DNA of 64,000 nt from an uncultured Aminicenantes bacterium (GCA_965195285.1 CBDAFS010000003.1:8257-72256); one strand, 5' to 3'. Counted from the stretch's first letter, positions 4,340-16,997 are shown. Numbers and translations: made by a program. The notes: generated by a model from the sequence alone, not told the origin.

Positions 4340-5413
4340 GTGATGATAAGCCAACTAAAATCGATTATCCTGAACGGACTCGATGCAATCCTGACAGATG
4401 TTGAAGTGGGATTTTCCCGGGGAATCCCGGGAGTTACCATTGTCGGACTTCCCGACAATGCCATCAAAGAGAGCCGGGAACGGATCAAACTGGCCATCAA
4501 ACATGCCGGTTTTGAATATCCGGTAGGCCAGAAAATTGTGGTCAACCTGTCACCCGCAGACCTTCGCAAGGAAGGATCTTCCCTGGACCTCCCTATTGCA
4601 GTCGGAATATTAAAAAACAAGTATGAACTGAAAAGTCCGGTTTTCAGAAATTATCTTTTTTTTGGTGAACTCAATCTGAAGGGTGATCTGAATCCGGTCC
4701 GGGGTGTTCTGAACCTGGCCTTATTTGCCAAAAAAAACGGCTTCAAAGGAGTGGTTATTCCTTACAAAAACGGTAATGAAGCGTCTTTTGTCAGCGGAAT
4801 CGATATCTATGCCTTTGAAAACCTGAAATCCGTAGTGGATTTCATTATTGCCCCGGATCAAACGCTGCCGTTCAAGGGATCCCGCATCATCAAAGCCAGT
4901 GAAAACCAGGAAGAGGATTTCAGTGAAATCAAGGGACAGTACCTGGCCAAGCGGGTTATGGAAATTGCGGCTGCCGGTTTTCATAATGTATTGATGATCG
5001 GACCGCCCGGATCCGGTAAATCCATGCTATCAAAAGCCTTACCATCCATTCTCCCGGATATGGAAGAAGAGGAGACTCTGGAAACCTCATTGATTTACAG
5101 TGCTACCGGCTATTTAAACCAGGACAACTACATTGTTTCCAAGAGGCCCTTCCGTTCTCCCCACCATACCATTTCAGACGTGGGGATCACCGGGGGCGGT
5201 AAATATCCGATCCCAGGGGAAATATCACTGGCCCACAATGGTGTACTGTTCCTGGATGAACTTCCATACTTTAAAAAAACCGCCTTAGAAGTATTAAGAC
5301 AGCCCCTGGAAAATGGAGAGATTACCATCTCCCGTTCTCTCACTACCCATACATTTCCGGCAAAATTCATGCTGGTTACGGCAATGAATCCCATCACTCC
5401 GTATTATAACTGA
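4340..5413 (+). pseudogene. comM: ComM/YifB Mg-chelatase-like AAA+ ATPase, 5' part, interrupted by integrated element
   Basis: [65 protein letters not shown]; homology ends at TAMNP (5392), then ITPYYN-stop read from element DNA. Confidence 0.95.
5377..5392 (+). repeat. Left att core, 16-bp direct repeat TACGGCAATGAATCCC
   Basis: Identical to 16499-16514; flanking bases differ on both sides. Confidence 0.95.
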
Positions 5414-5429
5414 ATCTTAGGGGTTTTGG

Positions 5430-5446
5430 GTAACGTGAGAGTAACA
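5430..5446 (+). promoter_or_regulatory. Putative integrase arm-type binding site (left)
   Basis: GTAACGTGAGAGTAACA, 15/17 identical to GTAACATGAAAGTAACA at 16354-16370 near the other end. Confidence 0.6.
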
Positions 5447-5518
5447 GAGAATTTACTATTTTCTCAATATTTAATAAACTGGGTCTTCTGAAAAACCACT
5501 AAATTGACCCCCTCCGAT

Positions 5519-5737
5519 TTACTTTTTTAATTTAACAATCTCAATTTCTCTTTTAGTGCCACAATGTAAAACTACAACATAATTATTTTCACTTTTTTCC
5601 TTTATTTCAAATAGAGAGCAACTCGATATACATTTCCTTTTATTCATAAAAGGACACATACAATTTCTGTCTCCATCTTTACCATAAACTAAATAATACA
5701 TATCCTCATCTATTGAATCTAAAAAATAGTCTTGCAT
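5519..5737 (-). CDS. Small Cys-rich hypothetical protein (element cargo)
   Basis: AAGGAGG RBS; CxCPF..C...C pattern suggests a metal-binding mini-domain. Confidence 0.65.
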   Translation of the reverse strand: MQDYFLDSIDEDMYYLVYGKDGDRNCMCPFMNKRKCISSCSLFEIKEKSENNYVVVLHCGTKREIEIVKLKK

Positions 5738-5822
5738 TTAAACCTCCTTTTATGGTTTTTAATCTCTCCGCTCCAATTATATTGATGTGAAATTATATTT
5801 CAAGTTTATATTTTGAGATATT

Positions 5823-6380
5823 CTATAAAAAGCCTTTTTGTAATTCTTTATAAGCATTTAATACATCAAGTAATGCTTGCTTTCTTTTCTTTTTAATTTT
5901 CATTTGATGATATTTTGTATCTCCAGAAAATCTAACAGCAATCTTTTGAGCTTTTGTAATTTTTTCAAGCATAGTAATATAAGATTCAGTTATCAATTTA
6001 TCATACCACTCGACTCGTCTTGGACTATGAAAAATTTCTGTTTTTCTTTTTAGTGGATCAAATTCTTTTCTAAATTTCTCATCATCAGCTTTTACAATTA
6101 TCCTGTTAAAAAAAATCCAACCATTTGGTTCAGCTTGAACTCTTAATCGTAGCAATACTTTTCCTTCTTCTGTTTTTCCAATATACAAATAAAAGCAATC
6201 ATTTCTCCTAAGCAGATTCGTGTTACTCTTGGGTGTTAATTTTGAATGATACCATGTGATTCCTTCCATATCATCTGTTTTTTTTCTCAAATTATACTTT
6301 TGCATAAAAACAGATTCATTAAATGTAAAAAGTGATAATACAAAAAACAATAAGATGATTCCTAAAAATATTTTTTTCAT
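5823..6380 (-). CDS. Exported hypothetical protein (element cargo)
   Basis: AAGGAG RBS; N-terminal signal peptide MKKIFLGIILLFFVLSLF; basic soluble domain. Confidence 0.8.
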   Translation of the reverse strand: MKKIFLGIILLFFVLSLFTFNESVFMQKYNLRKKTDDMEGITWYHSKLTPKSNTNLLRRNDCFYLYIGKTEEGKVLLRLRVQAEPNGWIFFNRIIVKADDEKFRKEFDPLKRKTEIFHSPRRVEWYDKLITESYITMLEKITKAQKIAVRFSGDTKYHQMKIKKKRKQALLDVLNAYKELQKGFL

Positions 6381-6425
6381 CTCTCACTCCTTTTTATTTA
6401 TATTAATAATACTATATCTTGATAT

Positions 6426-6467
6426 AAAAAAAAAGGGACCCCGCCCCATTTGTTAGACGGGGATCCC
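6426..6467 (-). terminator. Putative intrinsic terminator after the terminase gene string
   Basis: GC-rich hairpin GGGACCCCG...CGGGGATCCC next to an A-run on plus (U-run on minus). Confidence 0.55.
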
Positions 6468-6519
6468 CGGAGGTAAATTTATGTTACCACCCTCAAAATT
6501 TTGAAGGTTTAATTCTGTA

Positions 6520-7368
6520 TCAATCCACCGGCTGGCCAAAGGGCATGTTTGCTCTTTGAGAAAGGGGGTCCCAAAAAGGGTGTGGTTCAGGCTGTGGTGT
6601 AAATTCTACCGGGATTAAATCTTTCCCGCTTCCGGATTCCTTAAATGCTTTGACATCTTTTGAATAGGCAACGAAGCGGCCCATCGGCTCACCTTCCTTA
6701 ATAATCACCGTTGCGGAGTTATACGCTCGAACAGAAGCCCCCGGAAATACTTCAACCCTGGAATTATTGGAAGCCCTGCAGGACTGGCTTGAAGTAAAGA
6801 TATAGCCGGTTGATTTATCATGCAGATTTGTTTCAGCCCTGCAGTTACATTCCTGAATAACTTTACTGTCATTATACGCCCAGCATTGACCGCCATTCTG
6901 ATTGACCTGGGAGCGGTTCAGAGCTACAATCGCCTGACCTTCTGAGCAGGTAGCTGATCCCTTGTAAATTAAATGAGATTTTGCCCACCCAGAGAGTAAC
7001 TTCAAACATTCCTTTTTAATTTCATCGATATGAACCCAGCCGGGAATCTCAAAAGGTTGATGCCGCAACGCAAATTTCCACTGATCAAAAGGTACTAAAT
7101 AATCAGCATTGACATAACGCACCATTCCACCGGGAGCCATCCTTAAATCAACTTTGGGTCTCATCTGGCAGGCAACGAACCCCTCAAGCTGGCCAGGCCC
7201 CGCCGCCTGGACTTCATGCCAGTCAGTGAAGCCGTAAGTCTGATTTAAAAATTCCCTTTCATTAAGAAAATTGCCTCGCCTGTTATAATAATGATCAAAC
7301 CCGCCTGCCTTTTTCTTTTTTAGGATAATCAAGGCTTTTAGAAAACATTCCGACGCTGGCATGGTCAA
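6520..7368 (-). CDS. Phage-type hypothetical protein with short beta-helix-like repeats
   Basis: Repeating A-x-N/D-x-S-x-V units (ALNRSQV, AYNDSKV, ASNNSRV, AYNSATV); start overlaps the upstream stop. Confidence 0.7.
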   Translation of the reverse strand: MTMPASECFLKALIILKKKKAGGFDHYYNRRGNFLNEREFLNQTYGFTDWHEVQAAGPGQLEGFVACQMRPKVDLRMAPGGMVRYVNADYLVPFDQWKFALRHQPFEIPGWVHIDEIKKECLKLLSGWAKSHLIYKGSATCSEGQAIVALNRSQVNQNGGQCWAYNDSKVIQECNCRAETNLHDKSTGYIFTSSQSCRASNNSRVEVFPGASVRAYNSATVIIKEGEPMGRFVAYSKDVKAFKESGSGKDLIPVEFTPQPEPHPFWDPLSQRANMPFGQPVD

Positions 7369-7712
7369 TCAATTATTGGAATGGCTGGGTTTTGATTCGG
7401 ATCTGTGTAGTCAATTTCATCTGGCTTCTTTTCAGTTTCATCCGGTTCTGGTTGAAATAAATCTGAATCTGTAACGATTGCCGGGTTAAATTCCGGATTG
7501 CAATAATCAGTTTTTAGATTCAAAAATTCCTGCAAGGTTTTCATGGCCCAGCTACCCGCTTTTTCCAAAAGGACATTATCAAGGTACATTTTACCGTCTT
7601 CGTTTTGGTTCGGCCATTCTATCAACTGGCCTCCCGGAAGTTCAAGGGTGTCTGAAAATTCACCCTTTGCCTTTATCATTTGTTTTATTACGGTTTTTTC
7701 CTGTGTATACAT
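7365..7712 (-). CDS. Hypothetical protein (element)
   Basis: GAGGTG RBS, operon context, acidic Pro-rich C-terminus. Confidence 0.7.
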   Translation of the reverse strand: MYTQEKTVIKQMIKAKGEFSDTLELPGGQLIEWPNQNEDGKMYLDNVLLEKAGSWAMKTLQEFLNLKTDYCNPEFNPAIVTDSDLFQPEPDETEKKPDEIDYTDPNQNPAIPIID

Positions 7713-7723
7713 TTTATCACCTC

Positions 7724-8290
7724 TTAATTTTTCCTTATTTCCTGAGCTATAATCGCATTAAGTTTTTTCCTTTCCTCTGACAAAACCCATTCACCATTTT
7801 TTAACACATGGCCGGTTGCTTTCATTCTGATTGCCTGCTCTTCAAGTTCATAAGGTGTTTTTTCAAAACAGGCAAAGTCCTTTTTCCATACCGCCCACTT
7901 TTTATAATATGTTCCCATGGGCTTTTCCTGATCCGCAGGAATCCGTTTCCAGCCTCCTATTTTTGCAATCTCTTTTTCATGCCCCCTCATTTCCAGGGAG
8001 ACTTCCTCCAAGCGTACCCTGGCCGCATTGTATAGGCCCTGAATCCGGTTCACCTTGTCTTTTTCAATCTCGGCCTCTTTACGCTGTGTCGTTATCTTTT
8101 CCAAAGCCTCCAGCCGGGGCTTGTCTTTTTCCGCTTGCTTCTCATTTTCCTTTCTTGACTTGTCAAGCCATTTTTGATTTACATCTTTACTCTGATCTGT
8201 CATTTTGTCAAAATCAATGTCGCCAACATCCGAAGTTGAAACATTGTCTAACGGCTTTTCTTTCTTTCTGAAAATTTTTGGTACTTCCAT
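7724..8290 (-). CDS. Hypothetical coiled-coil protein (element)
   Basis: GGAGGT RBS; charged helical sequence; directly downstream of terminase. Confidence 0.75.
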   Translation of the reverse strand: MEVPKIFRKKEKPLDNVSTSDVGDIDFDKMTDQSKDVNQKWLDKSRKENEKQAEKDKPRLEALEKITTQRKEAEIEKDKVNRIQGLYNAARVRLEEVSLEMRGHEKEIAKIGGWKRIPADQEKPMGTYYKKWAVWKKDFACFEKTPYELEEQAIRMKATGHVLKNGEWVLSEERKKLNAIIAQEIRKN

Positions 8291-8313
8291 AATTTACCTC
8301 CCAGTAAATTTAT

Positions 8314-9918
8314 TTAATCTCGGTCGCTGTAGTCATGCTCCGAATCGTTGCTTGTGACTACTCGATTAATTTCATCCCCTTTCAATTCTATGATTTTGGT
8401 TTTATTCCTTTTTAAATCCCGGTCAAAACTATCATCAATTTGTGAACCGGGGCGGCCGTTCCCCATTAAACTATTGGGGCCGTATAACGATTCATTTGAA
8501 TACCCGAAATATCCGCCGCCTGATTGATTATACTTAACGGCATAAGAACAGACCGCCATTGCATTTGATAAATCGCAATGACTCCCGTCTTTTCCCCTGG
8601 GTGATATTACGGTGTCCTTTCCTGAAAGTGTTACTTTCCTTAATAAACTTAAAAGCTCATTGCGTAATCTCTCAGAATCCGGAAGCTCAATATTATTATC
8701 ACTAAATTCCGGGATCAGTAAAATAAAACATTCGCTTGCGTTTTTATCACTGTATTCAATTTTAATCCCGCACTTATCAAACGCCTCAAAAACCCACTGG
8801 CTGCCATATCGATCCGAAAGGCATTTATTAATTTTGTATGATTTCATGGTCCCTGCAAAACGTTCAGCAACCTCGCTGGGTGTCATTTTACTTTTAACAG
8901 GTATGACTTCATCCAAAAGGTCAATGATGATTTTCCCATTCTCTAAATGAGATATACATAATGAATGGCTGTTAGCCTTGCCGCCGCTCATGTCGATTCC
9001 CGCTGAATATGAAAACTCACTCTTATAAGGTAACATTTGACGGCCCGGTACGATTGCCATATCGATTGAAACTGAATTGAATAAGCTGGATATATCATCC
9101 CTGAAAATACTCTCATATTCACAAAGTCCCCTGGCTCGATCTTTTGCAATCGCCCGGTCTATTTTCTTTTGACTAAATGTCGGATTCATTTTCCTGGTAG
9201 TACTCAACCATATTAGAGTTTCAGGATCATCCTTTCCATAGTATTGATCATACATAGAAAATAAATAACCTTGACGGGAAAATGCACTTGATATACCAAT
9301 CAGTAAAGAACCCTCCATGATCCCCGGCTCCAATGCTGTAATCACTTCATCCGCTGGGTTTGCAAAGGTCTCTGCATTTTGCCAAAAGGCCAGTTCATCC
9401 AAGCATACCACCGGGCCATATAACGGGCCTCTGATTGCACGATAATCTGCTACCCGGATCATAATTTTTACCCGTCCAGAATTTAGGGTGATATCCTTTT
9501 GCCTTTCAATGTTGATCTCTTTTTTAAAGAGGGGATTTGAGTTAAGCATACCACTGATAAAATTGTATATAAGACTTGCACCCGTTTTATCCTGAGCCAA
9601 AATCGGAAGTATCAACTGTTCACCGATTGCCAGCTTATCCAGGAATTGATCTATGCTGAACAAAACTGAATATACAGATATTAGGCTTGTACAAAATGAC
9701 TTGCCTCCCTTCCTTCCTACAATAGCGTATACTTCTTTAAACTTCTGATCAGGGGGCTTTGATCTACCAGTACACTTTTTATAGATTTCATATTCCTGAT
9801 CTGTAAATGGAATGGCATATATTGACTTTAAGAAAGCCCGCCATGCAGTCCAAGTTGACATATCTTTAAACAAATAACCCAATAATCCGGGATCATCCAT
9901 ACATTCAATGATATTCAT
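8314..9918 (-). CDS. Phage terminase large subunit-like protein
   Basis: Walker A GRKGGKS, Walker B VVCLDE, motif III ISS, RNase H-like nuclease residues GIDMSGG / SDRY / HCDLSNA. Confidence 0.8.
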   Translation of the reverse strand: MNIIECMDDPGLLGYLFKDMSTWTAWRAFLKSIYAIPFTDQEYEIYKKCTGRSKPPDQKFKEVYAIVGRKGGKSFCTSLISVYSVLFSIDQFLDKLAIGEQLILPILAQDKTGASLIYNFISGMLNSNPLFKKEINIERQKDITLNSGRVKIMIRVADYRAIRGPLYGPVVCLDELAFWQNAETFANPADEVITALEPGIMEGSLLIGISSAFSRQGYLFSMYDQYYGKDDPETLIWLSTTRKMNPTFSQKKIDRAIAKDRARGLCEYESIFRDDISSLFNSVSIDMAIVPGRQMLPYKSEFSYSAGIDMSGGKANSHSLCISHLENGKIIIDLLDEVIPVKSKMTPSEVAERFAGTMKSYKINKCLSDRYGSQWVFEAFDKCGIKIEYSDKNASECFILLIPEFSDNNIELPDSERLRNELLSLLRKVTLSGKDTVISPRGKDGSHCDLSNAMAVCSYAVKYNQSGGGYFGYSNESLYGPNSLMGNGRPGSQIDDSFDRDLKRNKTKIIELKGDEINRVVTSNDSEHDYSDRD

Positions 9919-9987
9919 GTTATACCCTGAATAAAGCCCTTTTAAATCGATTGTAAGGGGCGATCTCTATCATATCAGTATCATTCA

Positions 9988-10407
9988 TCATGTTTTTTCA
10001 CCTTTCTGTTTAGATTGAATGTAGTCTTTAAGGGTATTCCCCTTATCTGCTTTCCTTTCAAGCCCCAGCTCACGGAGGGACCTTTGAATATTCGCACAAA
10101 ACCCCAGGTATGAATTAGCCAACACCGGGGTCAACCGCCCGGACTGCGTAAAAACTCCCTTTTCAGACACCCAGGATTCTATCAGGACCCGGCAACCAAT
10201 GAGATTTACTGTTTGGTCAATCAGTATTAATTGAGCCTGGGAAAGGGTAGACAAACCCCCCAGGTCATTTATGATATTTTCCCGGACCCGGTCTAACTGA
10301 GTCTTTAAGTCTTTATGATCCGCTGGCAATATACCGGATTCCTTAAACCGATAAACTCCATGCTCACCTTTCCGGGGCCGCCCTCTTTTACGCTTTTTAT
10401 CAATCAT
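9988..10407 (-). CDS. Putative terminase small subunit
   Basis: Directly upstream of TerL; basic N-terminus RGRPRKGEHGVY, helical core, LRELGL motif near C-terminus as in many TerS; GAGGT RBS. Confidence 0.6.
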   Translation of the reverse strand: MIDKKRKRGRPRKGEHGVYRFKESGILPADHKDLKTQLDRVRENIINDLGGLSTLSQAQLILIDQTVNLIGCRVLIESWVSEKGVFTQSGRLTPVLANSYLGFCANIQRSLRELGLERKADKGNTLKDYIQSKQKGEKT

Positions 10408-10762
10408 TTTATCTAATTTTTACCTCATTATATCGTTATTATTTAACTATTTTAATGATATTTTAATAATACGCCCGGTATTCGTTACCCGGTTGTTACT
10501 TTTTCTAATCAAACCCCTTGAAACCCTGATATAATCAGGCTTTTCAATTTCTGACAGGTTCCTTATAGGTAACCAGCACTTATTTATCAAATATAAACAA
10601 CCTCTAAGCATAAAAAACTGGAAAACGTGTTTGTGATTTTTCTTTATTAAGAGGGTTGCTGATTGCCTAAAATCAGCTAAACCCTTACTCTCTTTTAAGA
10701 GAGTTTTAAAAGATTTTAGCGAAAGTTGAAATGCTTTATTATCATTCATTTTAGGCATTTTC

Positions 10763-10825
10763 TGTTACAGTTAAGTTAAGTAAACGTTTCACTTAAGTTA
10801 AGTAAGTGTTACAGTTAAGTTAAGT
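10763..10825. repeat. Three iteron-like 22-bp-period direct repeats (putative replication origin)
   Basis: TGTTACAGTTAAGTTAAGT at 10763 and 10807, CGTTTCACTTAAGTTAAGT at 10785; exact 22-bp spacing, right after the rep-like stop codon. Confidence 0.8.
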
Positions 10826-10839
10826 CTCTCTTTTTTTTA

Positions 10840-12063
10840 TCATTTAATTAATTCCTTATCATTCACATTTTTTGACTTTTTAAACTCGAAAATAGCACTT
10901 TCTCTATTTATGGCATACCCTTTCAGCAACTTCTCTTTTACTGCAAATTCACATAAATTTTCAATCATTTTTTTAAATCTATACTGTTTGACTCGATTTT
11001 TAAAAACCCCCTTATTATTCAAATAATCATTTTTTTTTATAGTTCCGCATAATTTATTTAATTCTATTTTTTTAGGTTTTCCATGCTTGTAAAAGTTTCC
11101 GGTTTTTATCAGAAATTCCAAAAAGTTCAAATCCCATTCCCGGACTTTTTTAAATGCTCTCAGGTTTGCGATTAAATCAGAATGAATTATTACATAAAAA
11201 AGGGACTGGGAATCTGTTAAGTCTGTGATTAAGGTTAAGTTATTTAATTGGAGATAAAGTTTACTGGTTGAAATATTTTTTGATTCAGTTTTTGGATTAA
11301 GATTGAGTTTTTCCAATGGAATAAATTTAAAAATCGGTTCATCTGAATCTATAAAATTATAAACTTTAGAATCGGTTTTATCCGGGAAAATCATATAACA
11401 AGGAAACCTTTTTTTTGTAAGTCCCACCATAGCCTTTTTTATTTTTACCAGTTCTGTGCCTTCAGTATCTTTAAAACCCAAACTTTTCATTAAGTCCACG
11501 AAATAAAAGGGAGTGATTTTGAGGTTATTATCTGATAGAATTTTGAAACCACCGAAAATAGCGAATTTTTCATAAACAGAGAGTTTGTAATTTTCCAGAA
11601 AATTTTTCCCACACCGTTCCAACATTTCATTGGCCCGTTTTATCTGTTTTTTTATATCTTTTTTTTCTTTTAAATCTGTAGTTTTTTTCAAATTGTTTTC
11701 CAGTTCCCGGACATCTGAATTAATTTTTTTAAAAGTCGCTGACTTGGTGGTCAATGATGTATTCAAATAATTTACCGGGAGTTTGATTATTTTTTTACTC
11801 CAATATTTTTTCCCCTTCAAATTGATAAAATAATCTATTCTATTTTTTAATTCTGCTTTGTCCTGAGTGTCGAAAAATAAAGATAATTTTAAAATATTTT
11901 CCTGGGATAGTGAATCGAATATATCTGATATATTAAAACAACTCAAAACATAAAAAAATTTATCCATCTCATTTCCGCTATGGCTCTGAGCCAAACTTTC
12001 AAACCTTTTATGATCATTTTTCCTGGTATGTAATATTAAATTTAAAACATTTTTCTCATTCAT
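10840..12063 (-). CDS. Putative replication initiator (Rep) protein
   Basis: 407 aa, very basic; translationally coupled to DnaB-like gene and followed by iterons; family not recognised by sequence. Confidence 0.55.
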   Translation of the reverse strand: MNEKNVLNLILHTRKNDHKRFESLAQSHSGNEMDKFFYVLSCFNISDIFDSLSQENILKLSLFFDTQDKAELKNRIDYFINLKGKKYWSKKIIKLPVNYLNTSLTTKSATFKKINSDVRELENNLKKTTDLKEKKDIKKQIKRANEMLERCGKNFLENYKLSVYEKFAIFGGFKILSDNNLKITPFYFVDLMKSLGFKDTEGTELVKIKKAMVGLTKKRFPCYMIFPDKTDSKVYNFIDSDEPIFKFIPLEKLNLNPKTESKNISTSKLYLQLNNLTLITDLTDSQSLFYVIIHSDLIANLRAFKKVREWDLNFLEFLIKTGNFYKHGKPKKIELNKLCGTIKKNDYLNNKGVFKNRVKQYRFKKMIENLCEFAVKEKLLKGYAINRESAIFEFKKSKNVNDKELIK

Positions 12064-13490
12064 TATCCAATCCTGTCACGTGACCCATAGTCTTCCGATT
12101 CTTCAATCTCGTTCTCTAATGTTCGGTTAAACTCTGTCATCCGGGTTGTATACTTTTGAAATTTCAACCTATATTCACCCTTGAAATAACTCAATTTGTT
12201 TTTAGCAAAACTGACTTTTAAAATAGGCTCCTTTTGATCTGAATCGAAAAAGTCATTTTCATTTTCAGGTTCTAATAATAAAACCAAGTCGGCCCGGTAA
12301 ACCAGGCGTTTACTCCCGGATATATCGGAAATGGTCAAACGCCGCTCCTTTGATTTCCCATTTTTATATTTTTGGTCTTTGTCTTTTCGTACCTCTGCCG
12401 TTGTGATTATCGGGATATCATAGTTTGATACAATTCGTTTAATAATTTCCGCTTGCCGCTCATCACGTTCATTGCCCTGAAAATTTCCAACATCCAGATA
12501 ATGGAAACCGTCAATAAAAATCACCGTATTTTTATTAATGGCCAGAGACCTCTCAATGATACGCCTAACCTCTATAATCTTAAATCGCTCTATAACATCA
12601 AGCCGTTTATCCAGGAAGTATTTTTTTACTTTTTCGACTGTCTGCCTTTGCAGATCCCCGGCTTTTATCTTTTTACCGTCAATCTGAAAAGAGGTATTAT
12701 CACCCTGCCGCTTGTCAATATCCATTAATTCAATCCCTGAAATATTGCTATACAGTCGATTCAGAATTTTATTGATTGAATCATCCAGGGTGAAATATAG
12801 ACATCTTATTTCCGGGTTACTTTTCAATAAGTCTAAAAATAGATTTACTAAAATGGCAGTTTTCCCGATATTCGATTCAGCACCTATGATATAAAATCCG
12901 GCCTGTATACCGTCCACCGCCTTTGTTAACTGAGGGTAATTTTTCAATATATAACCTTTTGGGTTTTCCGGTTCTCTTTTCAAGTCCTCAGTAAATTTTT
13001 TATCAATTCTCTGATCAAGGGTCAGTTCCGGGCTATATGACCTGTCGGTAATTTTTAAAATATCTGCATTTAATTGATTTACGATTTCATCCGGTTCATT
13101 TTGGAGTTTAAGTGATTCAGCACCCGCCCTTTGGGTCGCCTTGAATATTTCCCTTTTTTCTGATTCTTTCTTTACCTTTTCGGCATATTCAGAGACGCTT
13201 ATATTTTCCGGGATCCCGTCAACCAGCCCGTTAATATAATCATACCCACCAATAAATTTTAATTCTTTTTTCTCTCTGAGGCATGATGATATTGTAACCG
13301 TATCAGCTCTTTTCTTTTTATCTGTCAGTTCGATAATGGCCTTTGCAATTTCCTTATGTCCATCTTTGTAAAAATCATCAATATCAATAATAGAAAAAAC
13401 ATCATTAATATATCGGTTGTCAATCAACATAGCACCCAAACAGGCCTTTTCTGACATTTCATCAAATGGTAACGTTTCATTCTGAGTCAT
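12063..13490 (-). CDS. DnaB-like replicative helicase (element-encoded)
   Basis: DnaB N-domain (LPFDEMSEKACLGAML, DFYKDGHKEI, IGGYDYI), Walker A GAESNIGKT, FIDG, ISGS..LVYRAD, AKNK. Confidence 0.85.
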   Translation of the reverse strand: MTQNETLPFDEMSEKACLGAMLIDNRYINDVFSIIDIDDFYKDGHKEIAKAIIELTDKKKRADTVTISSCLREKKELKFIGGYDYINGLVDGIPENISVSEYAEKVKKESEKREIFKATQRAGAESLKLQNEPDEIVNQLNADILKITDRSYSPELTLDQRIDKKFTEDLKREPENPKGYILKNYPQLTKAVDGIQAGFYIIGAESNIGKTAILVNLFLDLLKSNPEIRCLYFTLDDSINKILNRLYSNISGIELMDIDKRQGDNTSFQIDGKKIKAGDLQRQTVEKVKKYFLDKRLDVIERFKIIEVRRIIERSLAINKNTVIFIDGFHYLDVGNFQGNERDERQAEIIKRIVSNYDIPIITTAEVRKDKDQKYKNGKSKERRLTISDISGSKRLVYRADLVLLLEPENENDFFDSDQKEPILKVSFAKNKLSYFKGEYRLKFQKYTTRMTEFNRTLENEIEESEDYGSRDRIG

Positions 13491-13506
13491 TTTTTACCCC
13501 CTGTTT

Positions 13507-13977
13507 TCATTTTTCAATCCCATACAATCCCAATAAAAGGGCTTCCGCAATTCCATCATGTTTCCGGTATTTTTCCCAATCTATTTGATCCGGAAAAAGC
13601 TGTTGTGCTTTTATTATAGAATCCCCTTTTCCTTTTCCGATCAGGCCATGATATTTTTTCCACCGCACCGGCACTATAATTTCATGTCTTATATTCATTG
13701 ATACAAAAATATTTCTGAAAGTATAAAACCCGCCGCCGGTCATAAAGTTTGACTTTGAGGACTGGCCCGGATAAGCATGAAGTAACTCAATAAATGCCCG
13801 GTCAATAATATCCCTATGAGTAGTAAAAATATTCCACAAAACCCTTAAATCATAATCCCAGCTTTTCTTCTTATTTTTTATGATATCCAGCACCGGCATT
13901 TTATAATAAAATTCTATTCTCTTATTATCCATTATTGCAATGGCCCCGTTTTTTCCAACATCGATACTGGCTATCAT
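13507..13977 (-). CDS. RuvC-like Holliday junction resolvase (phage type)
   Basis: IASIDVGKNGAIA, AFIE, PVRWKK, HDGIAEALLL. Confidence 0.8.
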   Translation of the reverse strand: MIASIDVGKNGAIAIMDNKRIEFYYKMPVLDIIKNKKKSWDYDLRVLWNIFTTHRDIIDRAFIELLHAYPGQSSKSNFMTGGGFYTFRNIFVSMNIRHEIIVPVRWKKYHGLIGKGKGDSIIKAQQLFPDQIDWEKYRKHDGIAEALLLGLYGIEK

Positions 13978-14198
13978 TTATATTTCCTGACTTCCTTTAT
14001 GTCGCCATCAATAGATAATTGACCGATCCGAATTAAAAGGTCGGCTTTGATTTTATAGGGACTTGATAATTTTCCCAGTTTCCCGGATTGAATTAAATAC
14101 GAAAAGAATCGGAGCAGATCCCTTGAAGTCATTTTGCCCGTTTCGTACTGGATGATCCAGAAAGAGAGTCGATGATCTTCATCAATGAAATTTTCCAT
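13974..14198 (-). CDS. Small hypothetical phage-type protein
   Basis: IIQYETG...FFSYLIQSG; stop overlaps resolvase start. Confidence 0.7.
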   Translation of the reverse strand: MENFIDEDHRLSFWIIQYETGKMTSRDLLRFFSYLIQSGKLGKLSSPYKIKADLLIRIGQLSIDGDIKEVRKYK

Positions 14199-14217
14199 AG
14201 TTCACACCAAAGCCCCT

Positions 14218-14454
14218 TTATTTTGAATTGTTAATAATATGATCAGCGGCCTGGGTTTCCACTTCTTTTTGAGTTCTAACAGGATTTGAAAAAATAAAAT
14301 TATCCAGGTCTGACTTTTTGAAAATGATTTTTTTCTTAGACGGTTTGAAATATTTGATTTGCTTTAAACTGGTCAGTTTATAAAGCCAATGAGTTGAAAT
14401 ATTCAAATATAAAGCCGCCTGTTTTACGTTCATGATCTGACTTTGTTCTGACAT
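14218..14454 (-). CDS. Excisionase-like helix-turn-helix (HTH_17) protein
   Basis: MNVKQAALYLNISTHWLYKLTSLKQIKYFKP..IIFKKSDLDNFI; GGAGG RBS before ATG 14454. Confidence 0.85.
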   Translation of the reverse strand: MSEQSQIMNVKQAALYLNISTHWLYKLTSLKQIKYFKPSKKKIIFKKSDLDNFIFSNPVRTQKEVETQAADHIINNSK

Positions 14455-14569
14455 AAATACCTCCAATATTATTTATTCACCTATATTGTGCTATATGTTG
14501 GGGGATTAATCTTACGGGGTTTTCCGCTATTTTCTATGATTTTCTATGGAAAAATAAAATAATTTTAGA

Positions 14570-15202
14570 TTATTCGACTTTTTCCTGAAATTTTTCTTTA
14601 AAACGAATTAAATCAGAACCTTTTATTTCAAACTTTTTTGATATTTTTGATTTTTCAGCTTCTAAAGATATCAACCCATCTTCTTTATGATTTTTCCCAC
14701 CATGTATATAATTTAGTATTGACCTTTCATCACAATTATAAAGCTCTGCCGCTTCTTTTACTGAATAGATTTTATCCGGGTCAATTTTTTGAGTTTCCCT
14801 TCCAAGCCCGGCTTTAACGTTTTTTGATTTTTTTAAATTCTCTAACTCAAACAAATTTTTTTCATACTCTATTAAAGCTTCCAATTTTTCAATAATAGAT
14901 GGTACTTTAAAATCAAATTCTTGAAGTAATTCTTTTCCATGTTTTGTAAAATCTACAGCAAAAGAACCATCGATTTTTTGTTTTTCATCTTTTAAAACTT
15001 TTAAGAGACATTCAATTCTATTTTTCCTTTTTTTAATTTCTTTACATGGTTCTATAATTAATTCATATTTCTCATTTTCTAATTTTACATATAAATAAAT
15101 CCAATACCTTTGCTGTGTCGGTATAGGCCAAGCTCTAATATCTTTACCTTCAAATTCTGCAATTTCTTTTTCTACGGCTTTTAAAAATTCATGTTCATTC
15201 AT
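14570..15202 (-). CDS. Protein with C-terminal Xis/MerR-like HTH (putative regulator)
   Basis: IYSVKEAAELYNCDERSILNYI...KFEIKGSDLIRF; overlaps integrase stop. Confidence 0.7.
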   Translation of the reverse strand: MNEHEFLKAVEKEIAEFEGKDIRAWPIPTQQRYWIYLYVKLENEKYELIIEPCKEIKKRKNRIECLLKVLKDEKQKIDGSFAVDFTKHGKELLQEFDFKVPSIIEKLEALIEYEKNLFELENLKKSKNVKAGLGRETQKIDPDKIYSVKEAAELYNCDERSILNYIHGGKNHKEDGLISLEAEKSKISKKFEIKGSDLIRFKEKFQEKVE

Positions 15203-16298
15203 AATTCACCTCAATTTCCGGTAGTAAATCAACCGCCTGTCTCTTTTTATCATCTACAATTTTAGAATAAATCTCTGTGGCCTGCAAAGTTTTATGACCC
15301 AGCATTTTTGACAGCGTATAGATACCAACACCACTGGTTAGACTCATAACGGCAAACGAATGCCGGGATACATGGAAATGAACATTTTTATCAATCCCTG
15401 CTCTGGCCGCCCAAACTTTTAACGCCCTGTCAATCTGTGAATGATTCTGTATTTCAAAAACCCTTTTTCCTTTCAATTTGTCAAATTCAATATTTTCAAT
15501 ATTCAATATTTTCTGAGCACTTTTTGAAAGGTAAAGATATTCATATCCCTTTGTCTTTTGCTGTCTAAAATCAATCCTATAATAAACATCACCTTTAACA
15601 ATATCTTTTTGAAAATCATTCCAGTTTAAATTAAAGGCGTCATTTTTTCGTAACCCGGTATAACAGCAAAAAAGAAAAATCTTTTTCACCCCTGAATTAT
15701 TGCAAGGTGTGTTTGCCAGTTTCTGAATTTCCTCAAAAGTTAAATGAGTCCTTTTAGTTTCCAGGGATTTTATATTTGAAACATTACTTCCGGGACTGGT
15801 TTCGATTATTTCATCTCTTACCGCTTGATTTAGGGTAGCTTTAATTTTAACAAAATAATTATGGGCCGTGTTTTGATGAAGTGAATCCTGGAATAACAAA
15901 AACTCTTTAAACTGCTCTAAAAATGACCGGGTAACATTTTCAATAGTAATATCTTGTAAACCCTTTTCAATTAAAAACTTTTTCAAATAATTCAAGGTAT
16001 TTTGCCATGCCCTATTGTTTTTTGATCTCTCATTTTTGAGCTTATTAAAGTATGTTATAAAGCTCCCCTTTTTCTTAAAATTAGATATTGAACCGTTATT
16101 AGAGCTGGCAATCTCTAACTGTTTTCTGGCTCTGATATTTTCTGCAAGTCTCCAGGTTTCTTTATTGACCTCTTTATCATTTTCCAGGTAGAGGTTTAAA
16201 AAATCATATTCACGTTCCCCATTATTGTAAATATCTAAATAAAGTGAACGTCTGTTACCTTTCCCTTTTAGCTTTTTTTCTCTAATTTTAACACTCAT
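15195..16298 (-). CDS. Tyrosine recombinase/site-specific integrase (arm-binding + SAM-like + catalytic domains)
   Basis: SLYLDIYNNGEREYDFLNLYL arm domain; TGLRKND, QQKT, HFHVSRHSFA, LGHKTLQATEIY (R-K-H-R-H-Y); AAGGA RBS before ATG 16298. Confidence 0.95.
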   Translation of the reverse strand: MSVKIREKKLKGKGNRRSLYLDIYNNGEREYDFLNLYLENDKEVNKETWRLAENIRARKQLEIASSNNGSISNFKKKGSFITYFNKLKNERSKNNRAWQNTLNYLKKFLIEKGLQDITIENVTRSFLEQFKEFLLFQDSLHQNTAHNYFVKIKATLNQAVRDEIIETSPGSNVSNIKSLETKRTHLTFEEIQKLANTPCNNSGVKKIFLFCCYTGLRKNDAFNLNWNDFQKDIVKGDVYYRIDFRQQKTKGYEYLYLSKSAQKILNIENIEFDKLKGKRVFEIQNHSQIDRALKVWAARAGIDKNVHFHVSRHSFAVMSLTSGVGIYTLSKMLGHKTLQATEIYSKIVDDKKRQAVDLLPEIEVNYE

Positions 16299-16319
16299 GA
16301 TCAATCCTTTAAATTTGAT

Positions 16320-16370
16320 TGAGTAACATTTTAATTTGTTACTCATTATAATAGTAACATGAAAGTAACA
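16320..16370. promoter_or_regulatory. Integrase-proximal GTAAC repeats (arm-type/operator sites)
   Basis: Inverted repeat TGAGTAACA-N8-TGTTACTCA (16320-16345) plus direct pair GTAACATGAAAGTAACA (16354-16370). Confidence 0.6.
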
Positions 16371-16487
16371 TAATATCAACTATAATGTATAATAATATGA
16401 AAAAATAGAAAAATATAAACATCATGGTATATCCTTTGTTTACAAGCTTATAAAAGGATATACAGTCAAATATAATCATATAAAAGA

Positions 16488-16997
16488 TTGATGATAAATA
16501 CGGCAATGAATCCCTGTGAAGACTCAATCGGAATCAAGGAATATCAATATTACAATTGCACGGAATCCCAGCGAAGAAACTACTATTCAAAAATTTCAAA
16601 ACCACTGCTGGACCGAATTGATTTGCAAATTGAGGTGAAAAAAGTCAAAATTGATGAAATCACCTCCACTGTTCAGGCAGAAAGTTCCAAGGATATCAAG
16701 CACCGAGTGGTGAAAGCCAGGCAAGCTCAACTCCAGCGTTTTAAAAACCTCAAACATAAAATATTCGCCAATGGGCAAATGTCCAATAAAGAAATAAAAC
16801 AATTTTGTTCCCTCACCCGCCAAAGTGAAGAGCTCATAAACAGCGCCATTGACAAATTGAATTTAAGCGCCCGGAGTTATTTTAAAATTCTGAAAATTGC
16901 CAGAACTATTGCCGATCTCGAAAATGCAACTGAAATTAAAACCAGCCATCTTCAAGAGGCCCTCCAGTATCGAAACCTTGACCTGTTCCGTCTATAA
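16488..16997 (+). pseudogene. comM: ComM/YifB C-terminal part
   Basis: TAMNPC...KISKPLLDRIDL, LSARSYFKILKIARTIADL, HLQEALQYR; joining at the att core gives an intact ~511 aa ComM. Confidence 0.95.
16499..16514 (+). repeat. Right att core, 16-bp direct repeat TACGGCAATGAATCCC
   Basis: Identical to 5377-5392. Confidence 0.95.

Follow-up and report, generated by a model that had tools for sequence, protein, structure and literature searches.

Can an integrated element that brings its own phage DNA-packaging enzyme, and no recognizable head gene, live as a satellite of phages? The question is raised by a 64,000-nucleotide stretch of DNA from an uncultured Aminicenantes bacterium of marine sediment (GCA_965195285.1 CBDAFS010000003.1:8257-72256). 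The whole stretch is called the window here, and positions given without a locus name are counted from its first letter. An earlier reading of this DNA, made without database searches (the sequence-only reading), had proposed a complete element of ~11.1 kb with both attachment (att) cores, all genes on one strand and a large terminase subunit (TerL) but no capsid gene. The current analysis suggests, with a probability of roughly 55%, that this element is an integrative, self-replicating and helper-dependent phage satellite in the broad sense, with a complete terminase of its own and without virion genes. Elements like it recur and make up a kind of probable phage satellite that is apparently undescribed.

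The element spans 11,138 bp (5377-16514) and carries a perfect 16-bp direct repeat at its two ends. This att core, TACGGCAATGAATCCC, was found by direct-repeat search and by reading of the sequence; its left copy lies at 5377-5392 (direct repeat D8) and its right copy at 16499-16514, neither with a strand, and it is nested in a longer 31-nt repeat of 81% identity. The insertion interrupts a comM (Mg-chelatase/YifB-like) gene on the plus strand. The N-terminal part, 357 codons cut short by the insertion, occupies 4340-5413 (PF01078, 6.3e-70; PF13541, 7.3e-42), and the C-terminal part of 169 codons occupies 16488-16997 (PF13335, 3e-32; PF01078, 3.2e-11). Two genomes of the same genus as the host, G001 and G002, have unbroken comM frames of 512 aa. 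The empty site of G001 agrees with the left flank of attL at 35 of 45 bases and with the right flank of attR at 28 of 45, and 3 of the 16 core positions differ from the att core of the element. Because G001 reads through the left flank, the core and the right flank, the boundaries proposed earlier are exact. Between them are 15 open reading frames (ORFs), all on the minus strand, and 92% of the element is coding. Its GC content is 0.348, that of the remaining window 0.416; a tRNA gene search found none inside the element.

TerL is encoded at 8314-9918 (minus strand) and has 534 aa, with an N-terminal ATPase and a C-terminal RNase-H-like nuclease; it matches phrog_9 at 6.2e-11. Against the Pfam TerL_ATPase model PF03354 it scores 19.8 bits, below the curated cut-off of 23.7, and NCBIfam gives it no match or name. 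Many of its 91 homologues at E<=1e-3 carry PF03354, PF03237 or PF27249, and the best match among 5.8 billion proteins has 48% identity. In an alignment of 28 homologues, the Walker A motif GRKGGKS (residues 68-74; R69, G72 and K73) and the LDE ending at the Walker B glutamate E175 are invariant or nearly so, and there is no variation at the acidic nuclease residues D309, D369 and D449. The family profile also matches solved TerL nuclease domains (5tge, 2.5e-5; 5m1f, 9.3e-5). On the grounds of PHROGs, homologues, motifs and the profile match to solved nuclease domains, and not of Pfam, the protein is by its sequence a real packaging ATPase-nuclease, as had been supposed. Many of its IMG/VR relatives (e.g. 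L004, L011, L022 and L038) have a portal gene directly downstream. A single one of 50,697 deposited phage genome records matches the family, at 24.5% identity, and 5 of 72,556 plasmid records do.

The element has no head gene that could be recognized. The ORFs were searched against Pfam, PHROGs and NCBIfam, the unknown ones also against PADLOC, and 0 of the 15 matched a capsid, portal, protease, connector, tail, lysis, relaxase or type IV secretion system family in Pfam, PHROGs or NCBIfam, which agrees with the sequence-only reading. The coding space that follows TerL within the long operon amounts to 585 aa (188 + 115 + 282). Only two unknown ORFs, of 282 and 407 aa, have the size of a capsid or portal protein, and downstream of TerL only the 282-aa ORF does (6520-7368, minus strand). 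HK97 and portal folds among the unknown ORFs had been named earlier as the thing to look for. In the AlphaFold model of the 282-aa protein (pLDDT 83, pTM 0.83), an alpha/beta region at the N-terminus precedes a right-handed beta-helix at the C-terminus; VIA matches the model to TibA (Z 12.1) and to the CAP C-terminal domain (Z 10.2, residues 132-260), and Foldseek found nothing in the PDB at E<=1e-3. The protein has eight homologues of 45-57% identity. One of them, at 47% identity in a metagenome-assembled genome of Planctomycetota (L087:10007-10870), lies near two integrase-like genes, and this 20.9-kb locus, the only homologue neighbourhood inspected, has no TerL. The beta-helix fold, which is neither HK97 nor portal, and the L087 context together rule out the 282-aa ORF as a head protein. 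It is read as cargo, and its family seems to ride on different mobile elements.

Directly after TerL lies a charged 188-aa ORF, helix-rich by eye (7724-8290, minus strand). It is an orphan without a family match, only itself being found among 1.84 billion representatives, and in length it falls well short of the portals of relatives (at least 461 aa). A scaffold-like post-TerL gene common to all members is unsupported for this ORF. In hhalign comparisons its probability was 1.1% with a coiled-coil family made of the post-TerL genes of L083, L104, L109, L111, L095 and L100, and 0.2% with the 184-aa ORF of L082. The 115-aa ORF that follows (7365-7712, minus strand) has an acidic C-terminus and no family match in Pfam, PHROGs, PADLOC or NCBIfam.

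The same anatomy recurs in other genomes. TerL matches were found in 4 of 60 related genomes, one of them marginal, and three of the four lie in small islands that combine an integrase and a replication gene with a pair of TerL and its small subunit, TerS. Island L082 encodes a D5-type primase-helicase, TerS, TerL, a 184-aa ORF and a 1045-aa fn3 protein; L083 encodes an excisionase (xis), an AAA_25 helicase, TerS, TerL, ORFs of 321, 109 and 311 aa, and an integrase (int); L084 encodes a helix-turn-helix (HTH) protein, a reverse transcriptase, TerS, TerL, a PrimPol-helicase and int. None of the three has a head gene by Pfam or PHROGs. As boundaries of L082 and L084 only unconvincing repeats of 14 and 11 bp were found. 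Metagenomes were also scanned with the nearest TerLs, aligned in 6 rows; of the 80 loci obtained, 27 have at least 2.5 kb downstream of TerL, and 24 of these were scanned against PHROGs (L139, L164 and L166 were left out). No virion gene was found in 20 of the 24, although for 14 of the 24 only up to three of the largest downstream ORFs were covered; the other four (L098, on the same contig as L004, L107, L154 and L168) have one. Near-copies among the metagenome loci are L106/L108, L115/L116 and L160/L164. In L093 (TerL of 45% identity) the primase, TerS, TerL, xis and int genes follow each other with nothing between, and L095 has the gene order of the window's element: int, ORF, xis, helicase, ORF, TerS and TerL. 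In four relatives, which measure 10.1-15.1 kb, both ends are fixed by direct repeats that stem from tRNA genes. These are L083 (10.7 kb, tRNA-Thr), a member of the clade described below, and L109 (10.1 kb, tRNA-Leu), L108 (15.1 kb, tRNA-Asn) and L116 (11.8 kb, tRNA-Arg) from the wider 46-row TerL set. Their larger ORFs have no head, connector, tail or lysis match in PHROGs at 1e-5, and neither do their 51 remaining ORFs at E<=1e-3.

In a FastTree phylogeny of 149 TerLs, the window's protein forms a clade of seven with L093, L082, L100, L094, L095 and L083 (support 99). A quick IQ-TREE search with 45 rows picked from the 149 gives the same seven (SH-aLRT 99). The trees are midpoint-rooted, the groups were defined by the analyst, and the label of a capsid-less locus means that no hit was obtained. 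Within the clade, TerL identity to the window is about 40-45%, and six of the seven members have no virion match, L095 not having been assessed downstream. The next enclosing set (13 or 16 rows, support 99) adds the portal-bearing L004/L098, L096 and L102; in a 76-row tree the window stands with L082 and L083 (support 91), and the portal-bearing L004 is sister to them (99). Replication modules vary among the members (DnaB with Rep, D5-type primase-helicase, AAA_25 helicase, PrimPol), and TerS-TerL is kept. The sequence-only reading had allowed for a deletion derivative of a full prophage and had proposed a TerL phylogeny and a collection of att-bounded relatives among the checks. The nearest TerL relatives (40-48% identity) lie in small integrase/replication elements without virion genes, none of the four tRNA-delimited relatives has a detected virion gene, and a capsid-less state common to a deep clade contradicts recent deletion. 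Since the TerLs of the clade are about 40-45% identical and keep their catalytic residues, the capsid-less state appears to be old and TerL to be under constraint.

Several observations were made beside the TerLs of these relatives. In L084, a defence-type reverse transcriptase (7091-9163; PADLOC RT_UG19, 1.2e-129) lies directly upstream of TerS-TerL. L083 (2509-3444) and L108 (11233-12147) share the cargo family phrog_16139, which has a TIR-effector-like C-terminal domain (PADLOC, 7.6e-11 and 2.7e-8, respectively). Several capsid-less islands carry, directly after TerL, a conserved charged family of 276-321 aa, helix-rich by eye (L083:4125-5090, L104:2700-3530, L109:6776-7711; also L111, L112 and L146), for which a scaffold or size-determination role is a guess.

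Elements of other composition are found further out in the TerL family. L009 (1-8549), L015 (1-8231) and L071 (1-5462) belong to ~8-kb elements in which a major head protein (phrog_10) accompanies TerS and TerL, in L071 together with a protease; no portal match was obtained in the three. L009 has an integrase and a 46-bp tRNA-Arg repeat at its ends, and the contig of L015 has a terminal overlap of 114 bp, as expected of circular or concatemeric DNA. All three resemble miniature satellites of the capsid-forming type in which no portal is recognizable. In a further subgroup (L007, L008, L010, L012-L014, L016, L017, L020, L023, L024, L028-L030 and L043), a prohead-protease-like, tape-measure or baseplate-hub gene comes after TerL with no portal match between; L013 and L014 are contigs of 9.4-9.8 kb with terminal overlaps. 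Two small or medium-sized plasmids of cultured bacteria, typed as 'non-mobilizable', also carry a TerL of this family, annotated in both as 'hypothetical protein'. Plasmid pKNA06 of Komagataeibacter (L089, NZ_CP019881.1) has VapE, recombinase, small ORF, TerL, DUF2213 and ParA genes, and on pM44601 of Methylobacterium sp. 4-46 (L173, NC_010373.1) the TerL is accompanied by a small ORF; head genes adjoin TerL in neither plasmid. These are possible plasmid-type satellites and could serve as laboratory models. Methyloceanibacter sp. wino2 and Siccirubricoccus are further cultured carriers of the TerL family.

The names 'TerS-like' and 'Rep-like', given earlier to two genes of the element, go by position and synteny; neither protein has a Pfam, PHROG or NCBIfam family match. 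Homologues of the 139-aa protein in the TerS position (9988-10407, minus strand) were found at nine IMG/VR loci, directly upstream of a TerL homologue in five of the nine, and also in three related genomes and 27 metagenome loci. An Atlas language-model look-up gives Terminase_4/Terminase_6 as its nearest named cluster (0.92). The predicted complex of this protein with TerL residues 1-270 scored 0.40 (runs of 0.40, 0.41 and 0.39) vs 0.00 for the best control; at least 83% of the contacts were common to the runs, and the pLDDT of the partner was at least 70. In the calibration, 116 of 157 solved complexes attained the mark of 0.40, as did 2 of 215 mismatched pairs; scores that reached it but stayed at 0.60 or below came from only 18 of the 157 solved complexes and from both mismatches. 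The model thus lends weak support to a binding of the TerS-position protein to the N-terminal domain of TerL.

The 407-aa protein (10840-12063, minus strand), a putative replication initiator (Rep), takes its name from its position beside iterons, and two homologues are known from the searches. Its model has low confidence (pLDDT 54). VIA matches it weakly to RctB (Z 7.3, root-mean-square deviation 8.9), Pi (Z 6.1) and RepE (Z 6.0) and to winged-helix proteins; its 50 rows contain neither a capsid nor a portal, and the Atlas lead is Rep3_N (0.94). At most, the prediction suggests a winged-helix initiator. The iterons, the presumed replication origin, lie at 10764-10825 (no strand) and repeat a 22-bp unit 2.8 times (TRF score 96, 85% matches; repeat families D3 and D4).

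Around these genes the rest of the element is arranged as follows, in the order of transcription and on the minus strand throughout. The first gene encodes a tyrosine integrase composed of an arm-binding, a SAM-like and a catalytic domain (15195-16379; PF17293, PF13102, PF00589; phrog_1, 1.2e-40). Next are a 210-aa protein with a weak C-terminal HTH (14570-15202; PF12728, 6e-4, below cut-off) and an 82-aa HTH_17 excisionase/AlpA-like regulator (14218-14466; PF12728, 2.4e-9; phrog_25262, 2.3e-15; phrog_66 'excisionase and transcriptional regulator', 4.9e-6; TIGR01764, 1e-5, below cut-off). They are followed by a 74-aa DUF7417 protein (13974-14198; PF24192, 1.5e-8; phrog_3908, 1.3e-7), a RuvC-like Holliday-junction resolvase matched over its full length (13507-13977; phrog_1770, 3.1e-17), a DnaB-family replicative helicase (12063-13490; PF00772, 7.5e-22; PF03796, 2.1e-15; phrog_19, 7.2e-47; TIGR00665, 3.2e-37), the 407-aa protein and the iterons. 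Between the iterons and the TerS-position gene lies a 103-aa ORF (10447-10758), a doubtful gene with a sub-threshold Pfam match only and no homologues in the related IMG/VR, genome or metagenome loci; its region is a possible ori/pac region. The TerS-position gene, TerL and the 188-, 115- and 282-aa ORFs complete the long operon, which is closed after the 282-aa ORF by an intrinsic-terminator-like hairpin with a T run (6435-6462; 8 pairs, 6 of them G-C). Beyond it are two cargo ORFs without a family match: one of 185 aa with a hydrophobic, by eye signal-peptide-like N-terminus (5823-6380; GC 0.267), and a Cys-rich one of 72 aa, for which PADLOC was likewise without a match (5519-5737; GC 0.256). 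The genes behind TerL and behind the terminator are probably accessory or cargo genes. In total, five ORFs of the element match no family at all in Pfam, PHROGs and NCBIfam.

From this anatomy a cycle can be proposed, and it is here that we infer a satellite life style. The genes would suffice for excision (Int and Xis), replication (putative Rep, iterons and DnaB) and debranching (RuvC-like), and the TerS-position protein with TerL would suffice to recognize, cut and translocate the DNA of the element. Int and the HTH_17 excisionase would excise the element from comM at the 16-bp core. Rep would bind the three iterons and load the element's DnaB to start replication, and the RuvC-like resolvase would debranch the products. 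The TerS-position protein might then recognize a pac or cos site on the element, for which 10408-10840 is the candidate region, and TerL might cut the DNA, dock on the procapsid portals of a co-infecting phage and pump the element DNA in; helper tails and lysis would complete the particle. As the element has only 11 kb and no size-redirection gene is recognizable, it is more likely to be packaged as concatemers that fill heads of full size.

P4 is marked by sid, psu, delta and the alpha primase, and PLE (an element resembling phage-inducible chromosomal islands) by a gene set of Vibrio. Nothing resembling such genes was found in the general Pfam and PHROG scans, in which no dedicated marker profiles were used. 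P4 and the PICMIs (minimalist phage-inducible chromosomal islands) resemble the element in being helper-dependent integrative elements without capsid genes; according to the available excerpts of their descriptions, however, PICMIs use a DNA motif and P4 uses the terminase of P2, and neither encodes TerL. More features are shared with phage-inducible chromosomal islands (PICIs) of the SaPI and EcCICFT073 types, modelled in SatelliteFinder (PMC10085698): integrative islands of ~10 kb with int, an AlpA/HTH-type regulator and a replication module with origin on one strand. The element has the PICI core integrase, its 82-aa HTH_17 protein is a candidate for the core regulator (alpA, merR or stl), and it has a TerS-position gene with accessory genes and neither tail nor lysis genes. 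It differs in carrying a full TerL, whereas PICIs, in the same portion of that source, have no packaging gene beyond TerS (PMC10085698). The element also has no primase family match, and DnaB with the 407-aa iteron-side protein stands in place of a primase-replicase; it has no capsid-morphogenesis gene match, and it sits in comM of an uncultured marine-sediment bacterium. With the capsid-forming PICIs (cf-PICIs) it shares the coding of both TerS, here by position, and TerL. Yet cf-PICIs, in the portions of their descriptions at hand, are defined by capsid, protease, portal and head-tail adaptor/connector genes, none of which is detectable in the element.

The closest precedent lies in marine virus particles. 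VEIMEs (integrative mobile elements encapsidated in virions) are, in the accessible sections of PMC9618062, marine integrative elements without major capsid genes that are packaged as concatemers in full-size heads, a mode also reported for PICMIs in the excerpts mentioned above. Some have TerS homologues and 'motor-like ATPases', and a supplementary table lists 'COG4220 (Terminase large subunit)' for 5 VEIMEs of one module; the sections of text at hand expect the helper to supply TerL and describe no TerS+TerL class (PMC9618062). VEIMEs were defined by observation inside particles, whereas the element is known here from its genes alone, and the likeness is one of description, not of sequence comparison. 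They are the nearest published concept, and a capsid-less life style therefore has a precedent. PICI-like tycheposons share the marine setting, a tyrosine recombinase, DnaB/primase and a packaging-related gene; the available part of their preprint reports a major capsid protein or TerS and mentions no TerL (bioRxiv 10.1101/2020.12.28.424599). Full-text literature searches, with bioRxiv and PDF supplements outside their coverage, did not bring up a TerS+TerL satellite class that lacks capsid genes. The earlier claim that the element fits none of the known families thus holds for the PICI and cf-PICI features tested, but it had missed the VEIMEs.

A number of results weigh against the satellite reading. 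In the contigs of metagenome run X1, only the integrated form was present, with no attP or attB joint, and the depth of the element equals that of its flanks; X1, possibly the source, is the only run in which element DNA occurs (run X2 has next to none of the stretch, and no RNA data set is listed as containing it), and contigs cannot reveal rare forms. The host genome, 94.9% complete, has no match to PF05065, PF04860, phrog_10 or phrog_12 that would indicate a helper, and phrog_9 matches it just once, at the TerL of the element itself. A further helper search with phrog_146 was uninformative, as it matched none of its control genomes. With no helper prophage detectable in the host genome, any helper would be an incoming phage. 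For the docking on helper procapsids proposed by the sequence-only reading, neither an excision junction nor packaging evidence nor a helper was found. Moreover, a TerL of this family would have to fit a foreign portal. The TerS-position family has 0 of 13 members with a Pfam match and no profile match in the PDB. The 188-, 115- and 282-aa ORFs have no BLAST counterpart in the related TerL loci, and beyond TerS and TerL the element and its relatives have no conserved gene for hijacking in common. Finally, family scans without a match cannot exclude very divergent small structural proteins.

Other explanations were weighed as well. The element may be what is left, in decay, of a small prophage or of a satellite that once formed capsids; its head genes would have been lost, with unrelated genes in their place, and its terminase would be left over without a current role in transfer. 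Sister TerLs adjoin portals (L004/L098, with L096 and L102 in the BLAST cluster of the L004 portal), the neighbouring group has the ~8-kb elements with a major head protein (L009, L015 and L071), and the variable post-TerL genes, including the orphan 188-aa ORF, point the same way. This history is nevertheless unlikely. The clade of seven has no detectable virion genes outside the unassessed downstream part of L095 and keeps the catalytic residues of TerL; the element has kept its integrase, its replication genes and both att sites intact, and there are no stops inside the TerL frames. Nor was a close full prophage relative found among the proteins and phage records searched for TerL. Still less probable is a defence or interference island, whose TerS-TerL would cut or mis-package phage DNA or occupy procapsids and would not move the island. 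The relatives do carry defence cargo, namely the UG19 defence-associated reverse transcriptase of L084 and the TIR-effector-like proteins of L083 and L108, and satellites are known, from the excerpts of the literature at hand, both to interfere and to transfer. But 0 of 8 unknown ORFs of the element itself match PADLOC, and TerS-TerL always comes with an integrase and an autonomous replication module, needless for pure defence. Because interference and transfer are compatible, this explanation is largely a sub-case of the satellite reading.

To our knowledge, TerL works only with portal-bearing HK97-type heads, which counts against a small autonomous virus or a non-phage vehicle (a particle like a gene transfer agent, or vesicles) whose structural proteins are unrecognized or encoded elsewhere. 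Five ORFs without any family leave some place for such proteins, and VEIME-like concatemers are also reported from a vesicle-enriched fraction in the accessible sections of PMC9618062. The idea is highly improbable, given that the coding space after TerL is so short, that its 282-aa protein is a beta-helix of a family occurring without TerL, and that the host genome has no match to the capsid and portal families named above.

The satellite reading may be extended from the element to its relatives, with more reserve. That they represent an old, coherent and widespread class of satellites, with TerS-TerL, integration and replication of their own, without a head, taking only procapsids and tails, from unrelated helper phages, and often carrying defence cargo, has somewhat less than an even chance. 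Should it be true, large terminases would be portable between portals, and satellites would be the main home of a TerL lineage that hardly occurs in deposited phage genomes. If packaged, these elements would represent a fourth hijacking strategy, next to capsid-size redirection, TerS swapping or cos mimicry, and the building of an own capsid: the satellite brings the entire packaging enzyme, and an empty head is all that it requires. It would lead to testable predictions on the promiscuity of TerL and portal and on competition for procapsids. Many 'hypothetical' islands would join the mobilizable gene pool, among them those of uncultured bacteria from sediment and those on small plasmids of Alphaproteobacteria in culture. 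As related members carry anti-phage cargo, the class would also matter for the spread of defence systems.

Two minor observations concern comM. In the related genome with island L082, comM matches come in several pieces (G008:C3:86743-87804) with TGA stops inside two of them, and the gene may be broken there. In the window, the comM segment at 4606-4717, upstream of the element, is represented in run X1 by two alternative contigs of 112 bases, one of which has 5 differences and a depth of 5.2 vs 18.2; this suggests strain variation.

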